The notes: generated from the letters alone by a model not told the origin. Shown: positions 19,564 through 54,021, counted from the first letter of the stretch. The stretch is 64,000 nucleotides of DNA from a virus (IMGVR_UViG_3300045988_142422), one strand, 5' to 3'. Numbers and translations are program-made.

Positions 19564-19638
19564 GATGGTGTAGCTCAGCGGTAGAGCAGTTGGCTGTTAA
19601 CCAACTGGTCGGTGGTTCGAATCCACCCACCATCGCCA
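19564..19638 (+). tRNA. tRNA-Asn (anticodon GTT)
   Basis: Cloverleaf by eye: acceptor GATGGTG/CACCATC, D-arm GCTC/GAGC, anticodon loop CTGTTAA, T-loop GGTTCGAATCC, 3' GCCA. Confidence 0.85.
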
Positions 19639-19640
19639 AT

Positions 19641-19716
19641 GCCGGTTTAGCTCAGTTGGTAGAGCGCCTGCCTTGTAAGCAGGATGTCAGCGGTTCGAGT
19701 CCGTTAACCGGCACCA
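19641..19716 (+). tRNA. tRNA-Thr (anticodon TGT)
   Basis: Acceptor GCCGGTT/AACCGGC, anticodon loop CTTGTAA, T-loop TTCGAGT, 3' ACCA; 2 nt after tRNA-Asn. Confidence 0.85.
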
Positions 19717-19786
19717 ATACAACGATAAGATCATTACGGTTAATCGTCGTTCATGTGCACAATGACTGGTCGAAAGGTAGTGATCT

Positions 19787-19938
19787 TACCGTTGTGGTGG
19801 ATTCGCAGACTGATGCGATAGCTTTCTTGGATGTTAGGGAAATGCGGCCGCAAATCTTCCCTTTCGCGAGCGGTGATCGTCCGTAGTCCTAATTGGCTGC
19901 ACCGTATGCCGGAGATTCAGTACCGGCCACCACAACGG
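19787..19938. other. Long-range inverted repeat (12 bp CCGTTGTGGTGG / CCACCACAACGG) enclosing about 126 nt
   Basis: Arms 19787-19800 and 19927-19938; second arm ends 2 nt before tRNA-Ser. Confidence 0.5.
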
Positions 19939-19940
19939 CC

Positions 19941-20027
19941 GGAGAGTAGGGAGCATGGTGCTCAAGCGGTCTTGAAAACCGTCCCATTGCGCAAGCGATG
20001 ATGGTTCGATTCCATTACTCTCCGCCA
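19941..20027 (+). tRNA. tRNA-Ser (anticodon TGA), long variable arm
   Basis: Acceptor GGAGAGT/ACTCTCC, anticodon loop CTTGAAA, long variable arm, T-loop GGTTCGATTCC, 3' GCCA; D-arm atypical. Confidence 0.7.
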
Positions 20028-20029
20028 GA

Positions 20030-20107
20030 CACAGCGTTGAGCGGTTTGGCCTTTTAATCAACTCGATTAAGACTCCGCTAACATAAACCAGACCGCTCAA
20101 CGCTGTG
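20030..20107. other. Long hairpin: 16-bp perfect inverted repeat CACAGCGTTGAGCGGT with about 46-nt loop, directly after tRNA-Ser
   Basis: Arms 20030-20045 and 20092-20107; shares CACARCGTTGAG core with the 19176 hairpin. Confidence 0.6.
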
Positions 20108-20181
20108 ATAGACAATTACGGCAGACGTTCTTAACCATAGCTTGCTAACATCCTAGCAACACTTTTTTAAGCGCAAAATCC

Positions 20182-20205
20182 AAAGGGGCTTCGGCCCCTT
20201 TTTTG
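20182..20205. terminator. Bidirectional rho-independent terminator
   Basis: GGGGC-TTCG-GCCCC stem-loop flanked by A-run and T-run (AAAGGGGCTTCGGCCCCTTTTTTG). Confidence 0.8.
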
Positions 20206-21114
20206 TTAATGATTGCCTAGATATGATTTTAGTTCTTCTTTAATGATTAGTGAGTATTCTAAAATATCACTTAGTAAAAATTTTGCTCTGTTAAAATACC
20301 CACCAAAAGAACCTAAAATTTCAGATGGTCTTTCTAAGAGCATCACAATATCATCTTCTTGCACTTTAGTAATGTAACTTCTAACAGCTTTTTCTCCAAT
20401 AACTCTTTTCTTACCGTTTATTTCAGATTCATCTAAAACCTTATTTATAAATTTTTCTGTATCATTGAATCGTCCACTATTGTGTACTATTGTATGTCTT
20501 AGTAGTTCAATTAGCTTGATGTTAAAGCGATAGTTTTTGCCAATCTTGTTGTTTGTTTCTATCTCTTTGAAGCCAGGTATTTTATTTCTGAAAATTTTAG
20601 TTATTTTTTTCGATGGGTTACTTTTTGCTTTTAATAATCTGTAATAAACTTCCCTTTTCCCAATTTCATCATCTTCAACCTTACCAAAATCACTTGAGGA
20701 CCATAAATCATTTCGAACACATACAGTATAGACATATATTGCCTCAATATAGTCTTCCAGTAACTCATAGGCTTCAGTAATAACCCACTGATATTGTTTA
20801 TTTTTCAAAGTATTACACAATCTTATCTTTTCTTCTAAATCAATGGCGCTGTTACCTATCTCTAATGTTGAACCTGTATATGGGTTTGAACATAAATGGC
20901 GAGCTAACGTTGTGCCACACTTAATCTTAATAGTTTCATTAATATTAATAATAGTATCTGGATTCTGTGCATACTCCACTTCTTTAAGAAGACGTTTTAT
21001 ATTTTTCTTTGTTGTATCATTTATCTGATTTAAATAGTCAAAAAGTAAAGATATTTCTTCTCTAAATTCGTTGTATTTATTTTCAATCAAAGAATCAGAC
21101 AACTTACCAATCAT
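20206..21114 (-). CDS. AT-rich hypothetical protein with HEPN-like R-x4-H motif (candidate abortive-infection/defence protein)
   Basis: 302 aa, Lys/Asn/Ile-rich, markedly lower GC than flanks; motif LLRHTIVHNSG; isolated on minus strand between tRNA cluster and glutaredoxin. Confidence 0.3.
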   Translation of the reverse strand: MIGKLSDSLIENKYNEFREEISLLFDYLNQINDTTKKNIKRLLKEVEYAQNPDTIININETIKIKCGTTLARHLCSNPYTGSTLEIGNSAIDLEEKIRLCNTLKNKQYQWVITEAYELLEDYIEAIYVYTVCVRNDLWSSSDFGKVEDDEIGKREVYYRLLKAKSNPSKKITKIFRNKIPGFKEIETNNKIGKNYRFNIKLIELLRHTIVHNSGRFNDTEKFINKVLDESEINGKKRVIGEKAVRSYITKVQEDDIVMLLERPSEILGSFGGYFNRAKFLLSDILEYSLIIKEELKSYLGNH

Positions 21115-21743: not shown

Positions 21744-22847
21744 ATGAAAAATAGCTTTGACAGAGCACGCGCTGCGGAGAACACCTCAAAAGAGGCGATA
21801 GAGTATCTCGAAAGAGCATCTCAAATGCAGGCCGTTATGATCTCCCAGGTCAGCAATGACATGAGATTCTCGGACGCATTCATGTTATTCACTCGCTTAT
21901 CTCTGCTGATAACCAGACGTCGGCCAGAGATCGCTGTTCATTGTATTTTGATACATGTTTTGCCGCACATTGCCGATGTAAAAGTAAGTGACATTAATAG
22001 GTTCATGGTGAACCAACTGGTCAACCCACTAATACTGGATGGCAAAATTGTTATGGGCCGCCGCGTTTTCTCTCTGATGAAGCAGTTCCTTAGCTGGTGC
22101 GCCTTCCAGGGGATGATAGACGTGTCACCGTTAAACGATATGTCACTTAACAAAGTTGCCGGTGGCGCAAAGCCCACACCTCGCGAGCGGAAGCTGACCG
22201 ACGCAGAGGTATGGGTGTTCTGGAATATATGGGACTACTTCAATGTGTGTGCTGGTACAAAATGGGCGGCCAGGCTATGTCTTGTATCCGCAAGACGACC
22301 TGACGAAGTACTGCGGGCTAAAAAAAGTGAGTTCAATCTTAAGCGTGGGGTTTGGAATCAAGGCAAGAGGAACAAATCTGCCCGTGAGCATTCTCTGCCT
22401 TTAAGCTCATTAATGCGCACTTGTATTGAAGAGTTGTTCGAATATGGTAAAGACAGCCAGTGGCTCGTGCCTTCGAATAAAAAAATCGGGAAAGACCTTC
22501 CTATGTCTAAAGTGGCAATAGCCCAGGCATTACGTCGTATTCTGGAACGACCAGAACTGATGGAGCTTGAGCCATTTACACCCCGAGATTTGCGCCGTAC
22601 TGCGCGTAGTTACTTCCCAGCATTAGGCATAAGCCAGGAGGTATCACGTAAAATCATGAACCACAGTCTTGAGGGGATAGATCGGGTCTACGACCGGCAC
22701 GATTATATGGACGAGATGCGAGACGCCTTAGAAAGTTTCTCGACGTACATCGCATCAATCGTAGAGCAACCGGATTTAGACGAAATTGACCACAAATTTA
22801 AGGGAGATCGTCTATCAACAGAGCTTATTCGTGTAAATTTTTCATAG
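21744..22847 (+). CDS. Tyrosine recombinase (integrase or resolvase)
   Basis: C-terminal catalytic region DLRRTARSYF...HSLEGIDRVYDRHDY with R..H..Y signature. Confidence 0.7.
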   Translation: MKNSFDRARAAENTSKEAIEYLERASQMQAVMISQVSNDMRFSDAFMLFTRLSLLITRRRPEIAVHCILIHVLPHIADVKVSDINRFMVNQLVNPLILDGKIVMGRRVFSLMKQFLSWCAFQGMIDVSPLNDMSLNKVAGGAKPTPRERKLTDAEVWVFWNIWDYFNVCAGTKWAARLCLVSARRPDEVLRAKKSEFNLKRGVWNQGKRNKSAREHSLPLSSLMRTCIEELFEYGKDSQWLVPSNKKIGKDLPMSKVAIAQALRRILERPELMELEPFTPRDLRRTARSYFPALGISQEVSRKIMNHSLEGIDRVYDRHDYMDEMRDALESFSTYIASIVEQPDLDEIDHKFKGDRLSTELIRVNFS

Positions 22848-23228
22848 AGACTTTATGGCCTCAACAACCTTTTGTGATGCGCCTTTCTCTTTACCGAATC
22901 GCTCGTTATATGCAGCAAGAACCTGTTTTTCGTCCTCGTTAAGAGGAGCAGTGCCTTCTTTGTATAAAAATGCTGCGAGTTCGGGTTGGCGTTCTTCCAG
23001 CACCATCATCATAAGACGACTTGGCTCAATGCCCAGTGCCAGCGCCAGCGGACGAACCTTATCGATAGGCAAAGGAATTTTGCCGCTTTTAATTAAAGAA
23101 AGGTTGTTGGCGTTTTTATACCCAATTGTTTTGGCTATCTGGGCCTGGCTCATAGGTGAGGATTCAATCAACCCTGCGATAAAAGCAGCGTAGCGACTTT
23201 CTATAAATTCAATCTTGTTATCAGACAT
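22842..23228 (-). CDS. HTH (XRE-family) transcriptional regulator, candidate repressor
   Basis: Helix-turn-helix MSQAQIAKTIGYKNANNLSLIKSGK; divergent from downstream plus-strand genes across a 560-bp AT-rich intergenic region. Confidence 0.6.
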   Translation of the reverse strand: MSDNKIEFIESRYAAFIAGLIESSPMSQAQIAKTIGYKNANNLSLIKSGKIPLPIDKVRPLALALGIEPSRLMMMVLEERQPELAAFLYKEGTAPLNEDEKQVLAAYNERFGKEKGASQKVVEAIKSL

Positions 23229-23790: not shown

Positions 23791-25899
23791 ATGTCTAAAA
23801 AACGTTCCATCAAAGAGGTTCAGGACTTCCGTGACAGTGTAAAACGAGTAGTCGCTCTCCTTTCAGGTAAAAACATCCCTGTTGCAGAACGAGGGGACGA
23901 CGCTTATGTACGCTATAACGATGATGGAGAGCCAATTCTCGTAAACATCCCATCAATCCCGGATAACGCAACACCGGCATTGATGAATGCTGTGCGCGGA
24001 TTTCTCGATCATGAGGTTGCTCACATTTTGTTTACCGATATTCGTGTGTCCAACAAAATGAGAGAAAAAGGACGCGTTCCTTCCTGGTCGCTATGGAATG
24101 CCTTAGAAGACGTGTTCATCGAGCGAAAAATGGGTCAGGTCTTTAACGGAACAAGACGTAATCTGATGGCAACTCAGCGCCTTATAATCGAAAAAGTCTT
24201 TAAACCAAAGGCTTCAGAGGCTATTGCTTATTGTGGCAAAGATCAGCGCGCGCTTTTTCTAAACTTCTTTCTCTGTCCGGTTGTAAGAGCCTGGGATGGC
24301 CAAGCACCGTTCGTAGATTTCATGGATGAATATTGGCCTGTCATTGAGAAACCAATTTCATTATTAAAAGAACATGGTATCGATGTGGCCGTGCGTAACA
24401 TGTCTTGCACCGAGGATTGTGTAAAGGTGGCTGCGACCATAGCTAAGATCCTCAAAGACACTGAAAGTGAAAGCAAAGGTAAGGAGTCAGCTCCGGGAAA
24501 AACTTCCGATCCTTCAGACGCTGACCAGACGGATGCCTCTGGAGAAAACAATGAAGACAACGAAGATCATGAGACACCCTCATCGTTAGATAATCACAAA
24601 TCTATTAAATCAGAGTCACATAGTAAGCACAAACATGATAATAACGACAGTGATGATTCAGATAATCCTGAATCATCAGAAACAATATTCGATGATACAG
24701 AAAATGATAAAGCGGTATCAGATTCTGATGCTTCTGATAACGCGGCGTCAGAATCATTAACCGCTGACCACGAAAAAAGAAAAACGACAGAAGACGGCTC
24801 TTCAGACATTCCAACTCCGTCAAAAATGAGTCTGGAAGAGGCTTTAGAGGAGTTGGATAGCATGGAAGATGAAGTCGGAGGCATGACAGAAGATGCGCTA
24901 TCCGAAACGATTAAAAGCGAGTTAACAGAAAGCTCGAAAAGCGAATACAGGCCATACAATCGCTCATACGACTTCATCGGCTCGATTGATCAGGCAGAAG
25001 CCCATATCAAACGGCTTATTAAAACATTCTCCGATATTGATTTAGGTGGATATCCAATCAGCCGTTATCGCATCGTTCCTGAAGGCAACCAACTCTTCGA
25101 CAAATATATTGAAAAGCACCTTTCGTCAGGTGTTTCGTCGACGCTGGCAAAAGACCTGGAACGTGCAATAGCAAGCAGAAACAGAGTTCAGTTTATACCT
25201 GGCCAGCGTCGGGGGCGCATTCATGGTTCAAGTATCTACAGATTAACAATGAATGATGATCGCGTGTTTCGTAAAAAAGAAGAATCTAAAGCCGTTAACG
25301 CCTGTGTTCAACAAGTGATTGATTTATCGGGTTCAATGAGTGGCGAAACGATAAAACTAGCTCTTGCAAGTGCATATACCATCGCCGATGCACTTGATCG
25401 AATAAATGTTCCCAACATTATCACCGGCTTCACTACATTTGGCAGTCATATGGCAGCAGGAGAACTTAAGGCTATCAAATATGAGTTCTCTCGCTTTGAA
25501 TCTTTAATGCTACCTATCATCAAAAATTGGAATGAAAAAGCAAATTCTCGCGAAGTTCGCTCACGTATGGGGTGCGTAGGCTACACATTCCCACTTCTTA
25601 ATAACGTGGATGGTGAAAGCATAGCCAGCCTTGCATCGTTATTTTCCGGTCGCTTGGAGGACAGGAAGATCATGCTTGTTCTGAGCGATGGCGCGCCGTG
25701 GGCTGTTGGGAGAGGTTTTGACGCCCATTTGCGTTCGGTTACGAAGCAAATTGAAACGCAGACTGACATTGATTTGATGGCAATTGGCATCATGACTGAT
25801 GCACCGGAGAGATTTTACGCAAATCATGCCCTGGTAACTAGTGTTGATAGTCTTGGTTCATCTGTAGTTACTGAACTATCTCGTATCATTTTGAAGTAA
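23791..25899 (+). CDS. CobT-like vWA-domain protein with long acidic linker
   Basis: 702 aa; C-terminal MIDAS-like VIDLSGSMSG; central Asp/Glu/Ser-rich region; paired with downstream AAA+ ATPase. Confidence 0.5.
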   Translation: MSKKRSIKEVQDFRDSVKRVVALLSGKNIPVAERGDDAYVRYNDDGEPILVNIPSIPDNATPALMNAVRGFLDHEVAHILFTDIRVSNKMREKGRVPSWSLWNALEDVFIERKMGQVFNGTRRNLMATQRLIIEKVFKPKASEAIAYCGKDQRALFLNFFLCPVVRAWDGQAPFVDFMDEYWPVIEKPISLLKEHGIDVAVRNMSCTEDCVKVAATIAKILKDTESESKGKESAPGKTSDPSDADQTDASGENNEDNEDHETPSSLDNHKSIKSESHSKHKHDNNDSDDSDNPESSETIFDDTENDKAVSDSDASDNAASESLTADHEKRKTTEDGSSDIPTPSKMSLEEALEELDSMEDEVGGMTEDALSETIKSELTESSKSEYRPYNRSYDFIGSIDQAEAHIKRLIKTFSDIDLGGYPISRYRIVPEGNQLFDKYIEKHLSSGVSSTLAKDLERAIASRNRVQFIPGQRRGRIHGSSIYRLTMNDDRVFRKKEESKAVNACVQQVIDLSGSMSGETIKLALASAYTIADALDRINVPNIITGFTTFGSHMAAGELKAIKYEFSRFESLMLPIIKNWNEKANSREVRSRMGCVGYTFPLLNNVDGESIASLASLFSGRLEDRKIMLVLSDGAPWAVGRGFDAHLRSVTKQIETQTDIDLMAIGIMTDAPERFYANHALVTSVDSLGSSVVTELSRIILK

Positions 25900-25994
25900 T
25901 TAAAACAACCTTAATGATAAGTAACTACTTACCATAGTTAATGGTATATTTATATAAGAACTTGAACGCTCATTAGAGAACAAAGGAAAAGCGC

Positions 25995-27230
25995 ATGACT
26001 ACTACTGCACTGCAAAATGATAAAAATCCTTCTGATTACCTTGTTTGCAAGTGGTGCGGCAAATCATTTCACTATTTTAAGTCCCATGTAACCAATGGTA
26101 ATTGCGAGGGCATTCCTGAGTCAGTAAAAGATGCCGATCCTGACACCGTACTGAAAATGTACACAACGCAGTTTCCAGATGAACCAACGCTATCGAAAAA
26201 GGCACTTGATGCAATTCAAGCTAAACGTGCCGAGCAAAAAAGCGAAATGGCCAAATCTTCTGGCTTGACCAGTAGCCCAGGCTACACAGGCACAGTTGAG
26301 TACAAGACAGATCTGGTCGCAGCTCACGAACTGCTAAACGTAACGGTGGAAGAACTCGGAACAAAACGTGGGACGCCGCTCATGGTTAGCGTCAACGTCA
26401 ATACGCCGTATCCAGAGTTCGTTCCAGAAGTGAAGAAGGGCTACGTATATGGCGACTTCGAACTGATCAAAGATATTTTCATGATGCTTGAACTTGGCAT
26501 ACCTGGCTATTTGTGGGGTCATGCAGGAACAGGCAAATCGTCATTGCCTACACAGCTATGTGCTTTGCTCAATCGTCCGTTGATCCGTGCCCAACATACA
26601 GCATCAATGGAAGAGGCACATGTTACGGGGCAAATTCTGGCGCGTGATGGCTCTACGTATTTCGAGCCTGGCTTGCTTGCGCTCGCAATGAAGCATGGCT
26701 GGGTTTACCTCGCGGATGAATACGACTTTGCGTTTCCACAAATTCTTGGCGTGTATCAGCCAGTGCTGGAAGGTGAGGCGTTGGTCATCAAAGAGGCAAC
26801 TCCAGAATGGCGTCGCATTACTCCGCATGAACGGTTTGCTTTCATTGGCACTGGCAACACAAACGGTTCTGGTGATGAAACCGGCTTGTACCAGGGTACA
26901 AACATCCAGAACGCCGCGAACTTTTCACGTTTTGGCATCGTTTCGAATGTGAAATACATGAGCAAAGAGGCAGAGATCAACATGTTGATAAATGCCGGCA
27001 TCGTGGATGAATACGCTGAAAAGATGGTTAAGTTTGCCGGTATCGTTCGCGATGGATATGAAGAACACCTTATCAGCCAGCCAATTGGGCCTCGTGAGCT
27101 TTTGTTGTCGGCCAAGATTGGAATGATGCGAGGCGACTTTGTGACAGGTATTGAGCGTTCTTTCATTAACAAACTCCCTTCAGCTTCTGCGCAAGCGGCT
27201 CGTGAAGTTGTTCAAAAAATATTTGGTTAA
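25995..27230 (+). CDS. CobS/MoxR-like AAA+ ATPase
   Basis: Walker A GHAGTGKSSL, Walker B-like VYLADEYDFA; N-terminal Cys/His cluster CKWCGKSFHY. Confidence 0.6.
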   Translation: MTTTALQNDKNPSDYLVCKWCGKSFHYFKSHVTNGNCEGIPESVKDADPDTVLKMYTTQFPDEPTLSKKALDAIQAKRAEQKSEMAKSSGLTSSPGYTGTVEYKTDLVAAHELLNVTVEELGTKRGTPLMVSVNVNTPYPEFVPEVKKGYVYGDFELIKDIFMMLELGIPGYLWGHAGTGKSSLPTQLCALLNRPLIRAQHTASMEEAHVTGQILARDGSTYFEPGLLALAMKHGWVYLADEYDFAFPQILGVYQPVLEGEALVIKEATPEWRRITPHERFAFIGTGNTNGSGDETGLYQGTNIQNAANFSRFGIVSNVKYMSKEAEINMLINAGIVDEYAEKMVKFAGIVRDGYEEHLISQPIGPRELLLSAKIGMMRGDFVTGIERSFINKLPSASAQAAREVVQKIFG

Positions 27231-27232
27231 TC

Positions 27233-27436
27233 GTGCGTAAAGGATGTTTCGGCTCTCTTATCGCTGCTTCTGAAACTGGCAAGGCTTGTCTGGGGTGTCC
27301 AGACAAGCCCGATTGTCACCAATCAGCAAAAGAAGTTGCGATTTCGATGTATGGGAAGTTCGTAGGCTTCCCCAATGACAAAATCAAAAAAACCAGAAAG
27401 GTAAAAACACATGAAGGCACTGATGGTTCGAACTGA
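27233..27436 (+). CDS. Small Cys-rich protein (possible zinc ribbon)
   Basis: GTG start; 67 aa; CLGCPDKPDC; overlaps dnaE start region. Confidence 0.3.
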   Translation: MRKGCFGSLIAASETGKACLGCPDKPDCHQSAKEVAISMYGKFVGFPNDKIKKTRKVKTHEGTDGSN

Positions 27437-30400
27437 CTTCTCACTTGGGGAGTCGGCTCTAAAAGCAGAAAACGCGGTGAAGATTGCCAGAGAAGCTGGC
27501 TACACCGCTGTAATTTCAGCAGATAGCATGAATATTGCGAGCGTTATTCCACTACAACGTGCCGCTGGTGACGACATGGCGATTATTTGTGGTGTGAAAC
27601 TAAACATTGTTGATGATCCCACATACGAGCACCGGGCTAAACTTGCTAAAGAATCTATGAGATGTATGGAATCATTAGAGCGGGGACGTAACTACTCGTT
27701 TACCGCTCTAATTAAAAATGAGCAAGGATATCGCGACATCTGCGAACTAATGACGGCGGCCAACACACGAGAACAGTTCTACTTTGTACCGCGTCTCTCG
27801 CTCGAACAGTTGGTTTCTACATATGCCAAAGGCAACATCATCCTGCTTACTTCCGACATCGGTAGCGTGTTCCAACGCAACGATTTTGCAAAAATCATAA
27901 GCACACTGATTACAGCGGGTGGAAAAGACAACTTCTATAGTGTGGTTTATCCGCACCCTACCCCATTCTACGACCAGATTAACGTCCGGGCGATGAAAGT
28001 CGCCAGCGCATTGAAAATAGAGCCAGTGGCGTTCTATCCCGCTTATTACGAATCGATCGACGATGCAGACATTAAAGACATTGCGCACATGGTTACGAAC
28101 AACATCAAAATCGACCAGCCGCATCGTCTGCGTATCCCCCACCAGCGAGATAACGCCGTCAATGGTCGCCGCCATCTCCTTGAGGCGCTTAAAGCCTTCT
28201 CCGTTCGCATGGATGTGCCGGTAACAGCTGCAATGGCCTCAACAACGCAGGATACCATTATCGATTCCTGCACATGGCGCTGGCATGAATTGCCACCAGC
28301 ACTGCCCAAGATGGCAGACGACGAACCTGCAACGCTGATGAAACTGGCTGTTGCAGGGCTGCGTAAACGTCTTACCACAAAAGAGTTTGGATACACACCG
28401 CCTGCTTCTGAGAACAGGGTTTATGTTGAGCGGCTAAAGTACGAAATGGACACGCTGACTCGCCTGGGATTCTGTGGTTACTTCCTGATGGTGCGCGATC
28501 TGATGAATCATAGTCGTGAAACTGGCATTCCCGTTGGGCCTGGTCGTGGTTCCTCTGCCGGTTCTCTGGTGGCGTGGTGCATAGGCATAACCAACGTCGA
28601 CCCAATCCGTCACGGTCTTCTGTTTGAGCGTTTCATCAACCCTGAGCGTCTCGACTTGCCGGATGCGGACTTGGACTTCAGCCAGGCACGTCGCCATGAG
28701 GTGATCGAGTATCTGAATGAACGCTACGGCGAAGATTACGTTGCGGGTATTCCGAACTTCACCTACCTGGGCGCCGCTTCTGCGCTGCGAGACACTGCGC
28801 GTATTTACGGTGTCGACGCTGCGGATATGGCGGTATCCAAAGAGTTCAAGAATCTGGAAGACGATAGCCTGTCTCTGGAAGAGCTGCGCGAGCAACTGGC
28901 CAGCCTGGACAAATACGCCACGAAAAACCCGGAAGCGTTCAAAGCGGCGTGTAAGCTGCAAAGCCTGATGCGTGGTTTTGGTCGTCACGCTGCGGGGATG
29001 ATCGTCGCTGGCGTTCCACTGGTAGAGCGCACGCCCGTCGAGCTGCGTGGCAACGCTCGCTGTATTGCGTTCGATAAACGTTACTGCGAGGCGATGGGGC
29101 TGATTAAGCTGGACGTTCTCGGTCTGGCAACGCTCGATCTGCTGGATAGCGCGAAACGCTACATCAAAGAGAGTACCGGGGAAGACATCAATCTCGATGC
29201 TATTCCACTGGACGATCGTAAGGTTCTGGATGGGTTCGCTGCAGGGTACACGCAGGGCGTATTCCAGCTGGAGTCCGGCCCCATGCGCAAGCTGCTTAAA
29301 GATTTAGGTGGTGGAATTGAGCCAATGAGCTTTAAAACGGTCGTCGCTACAACTGCGCTCTTCCGGCCGGGGCCAATTCAATCAGGAATGTTGGATGACT
29401 ATGTTTCTGTCGCCAAAGGCTTTATGACGCCGGAATCATTACACCCCGTTCTTGATGAACTTACCGCGGAAACAAATGGCGTGATTCTCTATCAGGAACA
29501 GACGATGAACGCGACTCGATTGCTTGCCGGCTTCACAATGGCTGAAGCTGACGCTGTGCGTTCCGCAATCGGTAAGAAGAACATGGAAAAAATGAAGAGC
29601 ATGGGCGAGAAGTTCATCGTTCAGGCTCAAGCTGGCTGGATAGACGTTGAGCTGGAAGATGGCACTACACAGCGCATTCACCGTGCGGAACATTTTAAAT
29701 GCGAAGACGGAACTCTGAAAACTGTCGAAGAGGCACTTGAGCACGGCGCAAAACTACCTATAAACGCAGTACGCGTTACAGCGTCACATCCAGGGCTATC
29801 AGAGATGAAAGCGAAGGAGATCTGGACCGCATTTGAGAAAAACGGAGCCTATCAGTTCAATAAATCACACTCCGTTGCTTATTCTTTAATCAGTTATCAG
29901 TCTATGTGGCTAAAGACGCACTACCCTGCTGAGTTCTTCGCAGCTGCGCTCACCATTCTGGGCGAGGATAAGCATCAGGGGCTGGTGAAGGATGCGCTGA
30001 CCTATGGCATTCGCGTATTGCCACCAGACGTTAATGTGTCATCTAACCGAATTGAGATCCGCACACTCGAAGACGGCAGTCAGGCACTGTATGCGCCATT
30101 CTCTGCTGTGAAAGGCTGTTCTGAAAATGGTTGTCAGGCAATTATGCGTGCGCGTGAGAAAGTTGGTGGCAAATTCGAGTCAGTGGCACAATTCGATGAA
30201 GCGGTCGAGAAGCGTGCATGTAACAGTCGTGTACGCGAGTCGCTTCATAAAGTAGGGGCTTTTGCGTCAATTGAGCCAGGCAGTCTGCCAGCAACTGATC
30301 CTGAACGACTGCGCGACCAGGCTGAGCTGATGGGCAATCTCATCATTGACGCTGTTAAAGCATCACGTCCGTTCGAAATGAATCCTAAGCGTTCTGCCGA

Positions 30401-30929
30401 AATCAACGTACTCATGACACGTATGGCGGCTGAAATGGGCTTGGGTGAGGAGTTGATACGCCCGACTATTGGTATTAAACCCAAAATCATGATCATTCTG
30501 GACAATGCGAACGGCAATGACGCTCGTACCGGCTACTTCATGGAGAACGGATACGACGACTTTAAGGCAAAACTACTGACAGTTGGAGATCTGCGCATGG
30601 GCGATCTTTATGTCACGGGTGTTTGTAAGAAGGTTAAGGACAAAGAGAAAGACTATACCAAAGACGAGATAGGCCAGTTCACAGACTTTATGCGGGAAGA
30701 AATTAATCTTGTACGACCAACCTACATTTTGACGTGTGGTAGTCGTTCAACCGCACTATTTAACAATAAGAGTAAACCATCAGATCTGATTGGTCGTAAG
30801 GAGTACTTCCCAGAGCTTGATGCAACCGTCTTCTACGGATTTAACCCGAATATCCTGTACTTCCGACCGGAAGAAGGAGAGCGACTGGAGGCCATTCTGG
30901 CTGATATCGCGGAGACAATAAATAAGTAA
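27411..30929 (+). CDS. dnaE: DNA polymerase III alpha-type (DnaE family) replicative polymerase
   Basis: 1172 aa; PHP-like N-terminus; palm motif [36 protein letters not shown]...PDADLDF. Confidence 0.85.
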   Translation: [1172 protein letters not shown]

Positions 30930-30935
30930 TAAAGA

Positions 30936-30960
30936 AAACCCGCCTGTTGGCGGGTTTATA
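30936..30960. terminator. Rho-independent terminator after dnaE
   Basis: AAACCCGCC-TGTT-GGCGGGTTT then TATAAAG. Confidence 0.8.
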
Positions 30961-53134: not shown

Positions 53135-53548
53135 ATGGCAAGAGGTATGTATGTCTTATGCGAAATTGAAGGTGTGCTGGCAAATACCAGTCATCGTAAA
53201 TCTGTATCTGACGCGGATGCAGGCCAGCTCATTGCCGGTGATGAACTCATTTTCCCCACCAGCCGTATGTTGCGTGGTTTTGCTCGCTCAGGGGCTGAAG
53301 TGGTGCTTATCAGTAGCCGCTCTGAAACTCTTGAAGCGCCCACTAAACGATGGCTGAAAGATTTTGGTGTTGATTACGACTGGCTTCATCTCGTACCGAA
53401 TAGCACTAGTTATGAGAAGCATATTAAGCGCACATTAGCGGAGCATAAAGGCGATCTGCTTATCGCTGCGCTGGTGCACGATCCTCGACTCCGTGCCGCT
53501 TTAGCTGACTCTCATCATAGACCGGTCATCTATGAGGTGAGCAAATGA
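53135..53548 (+). CDS. Hypothetical protein (possible HAD-like phosphatase)
   Basis: ATG at 53135 directly after thyA stop; N-terminal MYVLCEIEGVLAN loosely resembles HAD motif I. Confidence 0.3.
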   Translation: MARGMYVLCEIEGVLANTSHRKSVSDADAGQLIAGDELIFPTSRMLRGFARSGAEVVLISSRSETLEAPTKRWLKDFGVDYDWLHLVPNSTSYEKHIKRTLAEHKGDLLIAALVHDPRLRAALADSHHRPVIYEVSK

Positions 53549-54021
53549 AGATGATAGCTGCTGTTGGCCGTAACTATGAGATCGGCATAGCGAACGAACT
53601 GCCCTGGCGTTGTCCTACCGATCTGAAGCTATTTAAGAGACTCACCAAAAACGCCACTGTCGTTATGGGGCGTAAAACGATGGAAAGTCTCAAACGCCCT
53701 CTTCCAGAGCGTCATAACCTCGTTTTGACGCGCTCTCATGGCTTTGTACCAAATGGATTCTACCCTGCTGGTGTGGATGATGTGTTGCGATTACCAGAGC
53801 CTGTGTGGGTGATTGGCGGGGAACAAATTTACTCGCTATTCATGCCGCATGTTGAAGAGATTTGGCTCTCCCACATCGGCGTTGATGTGCCAAACGCCGA
53901 TGCATTCTTCCCGGCAAGCATGATGCGTAATTTAGGCTTTGTGCCTGTTGAAACAGCTTATACCCAACGAGCCAGCGAGGAAGAGCCTGGCTTTTCGCAG
54001 ATCGTATACAGAAGGTCGTAA
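53545..54021 (+). CDS. Dihydrofolate reductase
   Basis: MIAAVGRNYEIGIANELPW...VVMGRKT...NLVLTRS matches DHFR signature. Confidence 0.85.
   Translation: MKMIAAVGRNYEIGIANELPWRCPTDLKLFKRLTKNATVVMGRKTMESLKRPLPERHNLVLTRSHGFVPNGFYPAGVDDVLRLPEPVWVIGGEQIYSLFMPHVEEIWLSHIGVDVPNADAFFPASMMRNLGFVPVETAYTQRASEEEPGFSQIVYRRS

Follow-up and report, generated by a model that had tools for sequence, protein, structure and literature searches.

CobS/CobT-like genes in the dnaE operon of an SSU5-type phage-plasmid: a candidate DNA-associated remodelling machine

Why should a phage-plasmid of Escherichia coli carry, just in front of its own DNA polymerase gene, two genes that resemble the motor subunits of cobalt chelatase? 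The question arises at positions 23,791 to 27,436 of a 64,000-nucleotide stretch of viral DNA (IMGVR_UViG_3300045988_142422; the whole stretch is called the window below), where a cobT-like and a cobS-like gene are followed by a small cysteine-rich open reading frame (ORF) and dnaE. CobS/CobT-like pairs are core or common in T4-like cyanophages, pelagiphages, ICP2-like vibriophages and SSU5-type phage-plasmids, and viral ecology routinely counts them as vitamin B12 'auxiliary metabolic genes', the viral proteins being read as hijacking the host CobN (PMC8651126; also PMC3037004, PMC11705849). A preliminary description of the window had listed three ORFs of 702, 411 and 67 amino acids (aa), all of which appear in our ORF list at exactly the positions given there, and had called the role of such pairs in phages unknown; the B12 hypothesis is indeed the only one that the literature offers for them, and it is unproven.

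The extra domains of the two proteins and their fixed position before the phage dnaE suggest work on DNA-bound proteins during replication, not B12 synthesis. To the following reading we would give roughly even chances: the pair is a derivative of the CobS/CobT motor peculiar to phages, placed in an early dnaE operon, and would serve as an ATP-driven remodelling machine acting on a DNA-associated client during phage replication. It may act by proteolysis as well; a function as cobalt chelatase is unlikely. What is established is the domain content, the integrity of the motifs, their conservation, purifying selection, an operon-like arrangement and an invariant gene order. If CobS/CobT-like pairs are DNA-associated remodelling or proteolytic machines, many inventories of auxiliary metabolic genes are wrong about them, and phage replisomes have a new accessory activity that is testable in the tractable E. 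coli/Salmonella system; the pair would then be a case of genes already annotated and common, yet widely mis-assigned.

The 702-aa protein matches Pfam CobT over residues 9-292 (3e-27) and the CobT_C von Willebrand factor A (vWA) domain over residues 492-701 (5.7e-83), both above the gathering scores, and its matches in the PDB are CobT (9uka_G, 2.4e-13) and the vWA domain of CobT (21vt_A, 6e-16). Its best PHROG is phrog_1576 (6e-301), annotated without a function, and there is a weak match to phrog_459, 'peptidase' (7.8e-8); the equivalog level of TIGR01651 CobT was missed, the score being 69.1 bits where 759 are required. The DLSGSMSG motif that the preliminary description had called MIDAS-like lies at residues 511-518 within a complete MIDAS (metal ion-dependent adhesion site), made up of D511, S513 and S515 with N604/D607 and D633, and the long acidic linker reported alongside it is borne out by composition (Table 1). 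Close relatives of the protein are 684-790 aa long. One metagenomic relative encodes the N-domain (443 aa) and the vWA domain (420 aa) in two separate genes (L097:2195-4785), which shows that the acidic linker is a natural break point. A comparable split has reportedly been seen in the haloarchaeal virus HHTV-2.

Within CobT_N lies a zincin-type HExxH motif with downstream glutamates. E75 and E111 are invariant in an alignment of eight diverse viral sequences, and E106 stands in an NxxED present in most of them. The HExxH motif itself was found in nine of ten diverse viral CobT-like proteins spanning three unrelated phage lineages, namely those of SSU5, four distant relatives (from metagenomes or genomes), Rhizobium phage RHph_N2_6 and the ICP2-like JSF27, together with the 'peptidase' genes of P-SSM4 and HTVC008M. 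Canonical CobT (PDB 21vu_H) has SMALR at this position, in an alignment that is weak (E 1.2), and the fold of its CobT_N has been described as resembling peptidase M48C (preprint bioRxiv 10.64898/2026.07.21.739949). The motif in the phage protein may mark a putative peptidase site that canonical CobT has lost.

The 411-aa protein matches Pfam AAA_5 (2e-15) and phrog_249 (2e-106), and reaches 84.9 bits (5.8e-24) with TIGR01650 CobS, missing the equivalog cut-off of 558.55. Over residues 142-411 it aligns with the solved CobS structure 9ujv (E 1.8e-25), followed more weakly by midasin, with its AAA domains at 1e-11, and CbbQ. The profile search proposed in the preliminary description therefore recovers both AAA+ and vWA domains (AAA_5, TIGR01650, CobT, CobT_C). 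Walker A (GHAGTGKS, residues 175-182) and Walker B (VYLADE, residues 237-242) are intact and are invariant columns among the homologues. With the AlphaFold2 (AF2) model (mean confidence, pLDDT, 87.5), Foldseek placed NorQ/NorD and CbbQ at the top, with a target-normalised TM-score of 0.86 and E-values down to 7e-16; these are the best matches of the modelled AAA+ core.

Residues 1 to about 140 fall outside the alignment to canonical CobS, which covers 142-411 only, and are specific to this viral branch. They contain the N-terminal Cys/His cluster that the preliminary description had pointed out, and its conservation is high: across 111 CobS homologues of at least 43% identity, each of C18, C21, H26 and H31 is kept in at least 92%, within the family consensus KItCxICGaxvHsIQlHLkxxHP..tiexY...FPDAPllS. 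Pfam ROS_MUCR is matched by the homologues P0058 (28.8 bits) and P0052 (25.3 bits; gathering score 25.4), and the top PDB match of the domain profile is Ros87 (2jsp, E 1.1e-3), aligned over Ros87 residues 19-53 with its Cys-x2-Cys and His ligands. AF2 models residues 11-80 as a beta-hairpin and helices with pLDDT 82-94. The cluster is accordingly best described as a predicted Ros/MucR-type zinc finger, of a type expected to bind DNA; in the window copy its zinc ligands are likely C18, C21, H31 and C37, the last replacing the family's usual His. T4-like and ICP2-like CobS proteins do not carry the finger.

Gene order was counted in 80 diverse IMG/VR loci gathered by a scan seeded with a distant relative, an earlier scan having yielded close relatives only. 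CobT stands directly upstream of this type of CobS in 69 of 69 loci, DnaE follows 85-2404 nt downstream in the same 69 of 69, and an ORF of the small four-cysteine (Cys4) family lies between cobS and dnaE in 72 of 73. The recurrent order is (integrase/helix-turn-helix [HTH])-small ORF-cobT-cobS-[sigma70_r2-like]-Cys4-dnaE::UDG-x-gp32 single-stranded DNA-binding protein (SSB)-5'-3' exonuclease-RecA, where UDG denotes uracil-DNA glycosylase, and it returns at 35-51% CobS identity in uncultured viral contigs of about 96 kb, in Ectothiorhodospira and Photobacterium contigs, in Pseudomonas Nickievirus and in Rhizobium phage RHph_N2_6. In the window and its reference plasmid (NZ_CP020118) the neighbours are an integrase, an HTH regulator, dnaE, SSB, 5'-3' exonuclease, RecA and ligase. 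Outside this branch, the pair lies between gp46/47 and gp45/44/62 in the T4-like cyanophage P-SSM4 and the pelagiphage HTVC008M, and 3 kb upstream of helicase and PolA in an ICP2-like phage. The preliminary description had taken the small ORF as a hint of a link with replisome assembly; the link to dnaE holds as gene order, replisome assembly itself can only be surmised, and specificity for DnaE is not borne out.

The polymerase in these operons has features of its own. Residues 1053-1168 of the window DnaE, a Pol III alpha-like protein, match family-4 uracil-DNA glycosylase (TIGR00758, 5e-7; about 30567-30914), and this UDG-like domain, with the motif LDNANG instead of GE(A/G)PG, takes the place of the usual OB/tau-binding end; the dnaE::UDG fusion (PF03167) is kept in all distant relatives seen. 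The PHP N-terminus of DnaE is degenerate. We considered whether CobS/CobT might load metal into the PHP domain, and rejected the idea because that N-terminus has no HxH metal ligands.

The 67-aa ORF that had been described as cysteine-rich and bridging to dnaE is a real gene. In its own frame the pN/pS ratio is 0.21, whereas the other frames give 1.1-1.7, which indicates purifying selection; of 80 related viral loci, 78 have the ORF intact and the remaining two carry C-terminal lesions. Four cysteines (C5, C19, C22 and C28) are invariant in the pattern GCFGS-x13-C-x2-C-x5-C, and a basic tail follows. The ORF is homologous to the N-termini of 170-189-aa proteins encoded directly upstream of dnaE in five distant relatives, with BLASTP E-values of 1.9e-8 to 8.5e-4 for L006, L097, L003 and L089 and of 0.007 for L090; these long forms match phrog_3616 at 1e-5 to 8e-59. 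They combine an N-terminal GC(F/Y)G...C-x2-C-x5-C with a C-terminal winged-helix-like part, and abut dnaE from upstream in every distant relative examined. By homology, then, the 67-aa ORF is recognisable as the truncated Cys4 N-domain of the approximately 180-aa phrog_3616 family: the window and SSU5-like proteins end after the basic tail, at residue 67, and the C-terminal domain of about 110 residues is missing. The family deserves to be flagged for its almost constant place before phage dnaE.

Two other identities for the 67-aa ORF were rejected. It shares four invariant cysteines and the C-x2-C-x5-C spacing with WhiB-like (Wbl) [4Fe-4S] proteins and with the EndoIII/MutY iron-sulfur loop, and the rule-based UniRef name of one homologue (P0124) is '4Fe-4S Wbl-type domain-containing protein'. 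There is, however, no Pfam Whib match; WhiB is the top PDB match of the profile at a non-significant E of 0.19, and an exhaustive hidden Markov model (HMM) search of 1.84 billion representatives returned nine relatives, none of them Wbl. The AF2 model (pLDDT 54.8) is too poor for a fold search. The other candidate was a sigma-70 region-2-like protein of 207-224 aa encoded between cobS and the Cys4 gene (L003:9182-9856, L006:9254-9877, L090:9230-9865), first taken for the small ORF in its longer version; instead, this is a gene of its own and an optional one, present in 51 of 69 loci and absent from the window and SSU5, and the true homologue is the next ORF. The sigma-like gene overlaps the start of the Cys4 gene, a layout like that of a sigma/anti-sigma pair.

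The four genes form an operon-like arrangement in which the pair comes first, next to what appears to be a switch region. Two nucleotides separate the cobS stop from the start of the 67-aa ORF, which in turn extends 26 nt into dnaE (start at 27411), a spacing that suggests translational coupling of the small gene to both neighbours. No terminator-like site was found on the + strand between 23084 and 30242, and the GC-rich hairpin behind dnaE is the probable operon terminator; a promoter scan gave no signal above shuffled background. The divergent HTH regulator, taken here as context only, is probably a switch or repressor gene, and an integrase/HTH pair also lies 5' of cobT in the relatives L003, L006 and L007. 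The 70-aa ORF that opens the rightward operon is confined to SSU5-like elements, and the small ORFs in the same position upstream of cobT in distant relatives have no detectable homology to it.

Table 1. Positions of the features discussed, in the window unless a relative (L number) is named.
Feature	Coordinates	Strand	Evidence or remark
HTH regulator	22842..23228	-	Pfam HTH_19 7.8e-4 (below gathering score); PGAP 'transcriptional regulator'
First small ORF of rightward operon, 70 aa	23480..23692	+	phrog_2627 8.8e-41
cobT-like gene, 702 aa, ATG	23791..25899	+	CobT_N, acidic linker, vWA/MIDAS
HEVAH (residues 74-78), zincin-type HExxH in CobT_N	24010..24024	+	followed by NALED..IE (E106, E111)
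Acidic Ser/Thr-rich low-complexity linker, residues 226-400	24466..24990	+	D+E 29%, S+T 26%
vWA domain	25264..25893	+	DLSGS at 25321-25335
cobS-like gene, 411 aa, ATG	25995..27230	+	N-terminal zinc finger (predicted) and CobS/NorQ/CbbQ-type AAA+ ATPase
Predicted Ros/MucR-type zinc finger, residues 16-70	26040..26204	+	family conservation, profile, AF2
AAA+ module	26418..27227	+	Walker A GHAGTGKS 26517-26540; Walker B VYLADE 26703-26720
67-aa Cys4 ORF, GTG	27233..27436	+	phrog_6337 2.9e-46; phrog_3616 1.1e-4
dnaE, 1172 aa, last operon gene	27411..30929	+	Pfam and NCBIfam matches
GC-rich palindromic hairpin	30936..30957	.	7 nt 3' of dnaE stop
phrog_3616 long forms	L003:9853-10365, L006:9870-10439, L089:9311-9853, L090:9862-10392, L097:6280-6825		no Pfam match

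Identity over the module region is 99.9% with plasmid NZ_CP020118, 94-97% with two phages of Escherichia, Cyrano and PhiR41_1, and 82% at the DNA level with Salmonella phage SSU5. Of 5426 complete E. coli genomes, 244 (about 4.5%) carry the module, in every case on a plasmid of roughly 100-125 kb and in none on the chromosome. Since every match in a complete E. coli genome is plasmid-borne, the window is assigned to an SSU5-type E. coli phage-plasmid. The four genes are annotated in the SSU5 record as SSU5_049-052, the pair being SSU5_049/050, and PHROGs holds the CobT-like protein, the CobS-like protein and the 67-aa ORF as phrog_1576, phrog_249 and phrog_6337. A CobT-like gene next to a CobS-like one in the genome of a tailed phage marks the pair, by homology, as a member of the viral cobST cluster, and in that sense it is already catalogued (viral cobST, SSU5_049-051, PHROGs). 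Our analysis adds to the preliminary description the identity of the module as SSU5-type, the predicted Ros/MucR-type finger, the HExxH motif of CobT and the relation of the 67-aa ORF to a larger protein. The Cyrano record (OV696614) labels the genes matching 23791-27230 'dimethylbenzimidazole phosphoribosyltransferase' and 'cobalamin synthetase', a naming error, because the enteric enzymes called CobT and CobS are not related to the chelatase subunits that share those names.

How far do known systems resemble the pair? The CobS/CobT cobaltochelatase motor of the Pseudomonas/Brucella type (PDB 9ujv, 9uka; EC 6.6.1.2) has a homologous AAA+ protein and adjacent genes, and its CobT shares the three-part plan of CobT_N, flexible linker and vWA domain with MIDAS. 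The phage pair differs in having no CobN, cob operon or B12 user in its element and in being embedded in a phage replication operon; its CobS has the additional 140 or so N-terminal residues with the finger, and its CobT has HExxH where the canonical protein has SMALR. Other viral cobST genes (PMC8651126; ICP2 ORF41/42, PMC3037004; the cobS and 'peptidase' genes of T4-like cyanophages) form the same adjacent pair, to which the branch of DnaE siphophages and phage-plasmids adds the CobS finger and a locked association with the Cys4 gene and dnaE. MoxR-class systems (NorQ-NorD, CbbQ-CbbO, RavA-ViaA, midasin/Rea1) share the AAA+ fold, Walker A/B and a MIDAS partner, and the phage pair has both an AAA+ protein with intact Walker motifs and an adjacent vWA protein with a complete MIDAS; the acidic linker before the MIDAS likewise recurs in midasin and BchD/NorD. 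In the general MoxR/vWA mechanism the MIDAS captures a client that ATP hydrolysis then remodels (PMC7159879). The known clients of the MoxR class are metalloenzymes or pre-ribosomes, whereas the phage pair has a replication context, the extra finger and the putative peptidase site. The consensus of the predicted phage finger aligns with the Cys-x2-Cys and His ligands of Ros/MucR domains such as Ros87, which are joined to an oligomerisation domain; the phage finger is fused to an AAA+ ATPase, and the window copy has an insertion and the probable fourth ligand Cys37. In working mode, the closest analogy would be with the MoxR-class AAA+/vWA remodellers (NorQD, CbbQO, midasin). Our literature search found no report of the CobS zinc-finger fusion, the retained CobT HExxH or the fixed Cys4-dnaE partnership.

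On these likenesses a mechanism can be sketched. By homology with solved CobS and NorQ, the phage CobS would form a hexameric AAA+ ring, which the zinc finger, to judge from its presence as an extra domain, would tether to DNA. CobT would dock on the ring through its N-domain, as in CobST, and its vWA/MIDAS, carried on the long acidic linker, would capture an acidic residue or peptide of the client; ATP hydrolysis by CobS would then pull on or rearrange the captured client, and the HExxH site in the M48-like fold of the CobT N-domain may cleave it. Candidate clients are DnaE::UDG, the Cys4 protein and a host DNA-bound protein. From the features described we infer the oligomeric state, binding to DNA, a peptidase activity, the client's identity and the phenotype. 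A bolder version, which we think improbable, is that the chelatase plan has been rebuilt with the DNA polymerase in place of CobN, the DNA-tethered CobS/CobT and the Cys4 protein loading, recycling or activating DnaE::UDG, or else that AAA+-coupled proteolysis clears roadblocks as a bacterial-virus analogue of Cdc48/SPRTN-type clearance of DNA-protein crosslinks. The polymerase-loading idea is set against a phage replisome that has neither sliding clamp nor clamp loader among its own genes.

Several observations weigh against a DNA-associated remodelling machine of this kind. The window finger gives no significant Pfam match itself, has a 12-residue insertion (37-48) and an H36-to-N change, and some CobS relatives are without the full zinc ligands (C-x2-D). 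The CobT N-domain matches no peptidase family in Pfam even at E up to 10, so that peptidase activity remains putative, and Pseudomonas phage Nican01 has lost HExxH, which implies that such activity is not universally essential. In P-SSM4 the gene pcyA lies between the two genes. Guilt by association is a weak argument in phages, the early regions of which are mosaics. Among the phage records of GenBank, 1192 contain DnaE and 494 contain CobS, and the two sets are largely different; because DnaE phages mostly have no CobST, a DnaE-specific client is unlikely for the whole family. A strict co-dependence of DnaE and CobST was on these grounds rejected: most phage DnaE proteins occur without CobST, and CobST occurs beside PolB with its clamp and beside PolA, so that the link is with the replication module generally, not with DnaE specifically. 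Finally, our literature search turned up no experimental study of a viral CobS/CobT.

Of the other explanations, the published one would make the pair an auxiliary metabolic module, in which viral CobS/CobT hijack the host CobN, or a ChlH-like subunit, and raise cobalamin, for instance for B12-dependent ribonucleotide reduction. True homology to both chelatase motor subunits speaks for it, as do the 'porphyrin biosynthesis' annotation of phrog_249, the statement of the hypothesis in the three papers cited at the outset and two weaker PHROG matches of the CobT-like protein (phrog_17276 and phrog_5298), which alone among its matches are annotated cobaltochelatase CobT or cobalamin biosynthesis. 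Yet none of the 125 annotated features of NZ_CP020118 is cobN, any other cob/cbi gene or a B12 enzyme. To our knowledge, E. coli has neither de novo cobalamin synthesis nor CobN; Salmonella uses CbiK. CobN and the aerobic pathway are missing from the element as annotated and, as far as is known, from the host. The reference plasmid encodes a class Ia ribonucleotide reductase (NrdAB), which is B12-independent, together with ThyA, dihydrofolate reductase, a DnaB-like helicase, ligase, RNase H, a 3'-5' exonuclease and RecA. Moreover, the scores of the two proteins are 6-11 times below the equivalog cut-offs, the canonical proteins have no zinc finger and no HExxH, and the genes sit in replication operons (69 of 69 related loci) and never with cob genes. 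The B12 interpretation does not fit this host, and we consider it very unlikely here. Still less probable is a chaperone for virion or tail assembly. Its precedent is the MoxR-vWA pair of the archaeal virus ATV, for which a role in tail development has been proposed (PMC7159879), but in the reference plasmid the structural genes, from terminase to tail fibre, occupy 21.8-50.5 kb whereas cobT lies at 68.4 kb, in the replication module, and a finger of the DNA-binding type would be left unaccounted for.

A role in host takeover or counter-defence is a more serious competitor, if a doubtful one. Here the pair would be a DNA-tethered AAA+/vWA metalloprotease that removes or degrades host proteins bound to phage or host DNA at an early stage of infection, without regard to the phage polymerase; its targets might be nucleoid proteins (H-NS, for instance), stalled replisomes or RNA polymerase of the host, or a defence protein. 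The finger comes from the Ros/MucR family of binders of AT-rich DNA, HExxH is conserved, and the pair is first in an early operon beside the switch region. The pair also occurs in phages with three polymerase families, which fits a polymerase-independent role. The PADLOC models, on the other hand, gave no similarity to known defence or anti-defence proteins, and the invariant adjacency of the Cys4 gene and dnaE (69-73 loci) would go unexplained.

Other parts of the element showed some minor features. At 19564-20027 the window has tRNA genes of the phage; an attachment site of a chromosomal island, as tRNA-Ser and the integrase might suggest, was rejected, the tRNAs being phage-borne and all E. 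coli matches lying on plasmids. They belong to a variable hotspot (19564-21114) in which the window carries tRNA-Asn, tRNA-Thr and tRNA-Ser without the tRNA-Tyr that the reference plasmid has. The hotspot also holds an ORF of 302 aa (20206-21114, - strand) with a low GC of 0.36, which replaces a 420-aa hypothetical gene and has no match in Pfam or PADLOC. By synteny with NZ_CP020118 (offset 44632), the 158-aa ORF at 53545-54021 is a phage dihydrofolate reductase, named trimethoprim-resistant DfrA51 by NCBI, and adjoins thymidylate synthase and the class Ia nrdAB. In the Ectothiorhodospira relative, the RecA gene carries an intein (L006:16375-17188), seen as a weak Pfam Intein_splicing match within RecA_N.

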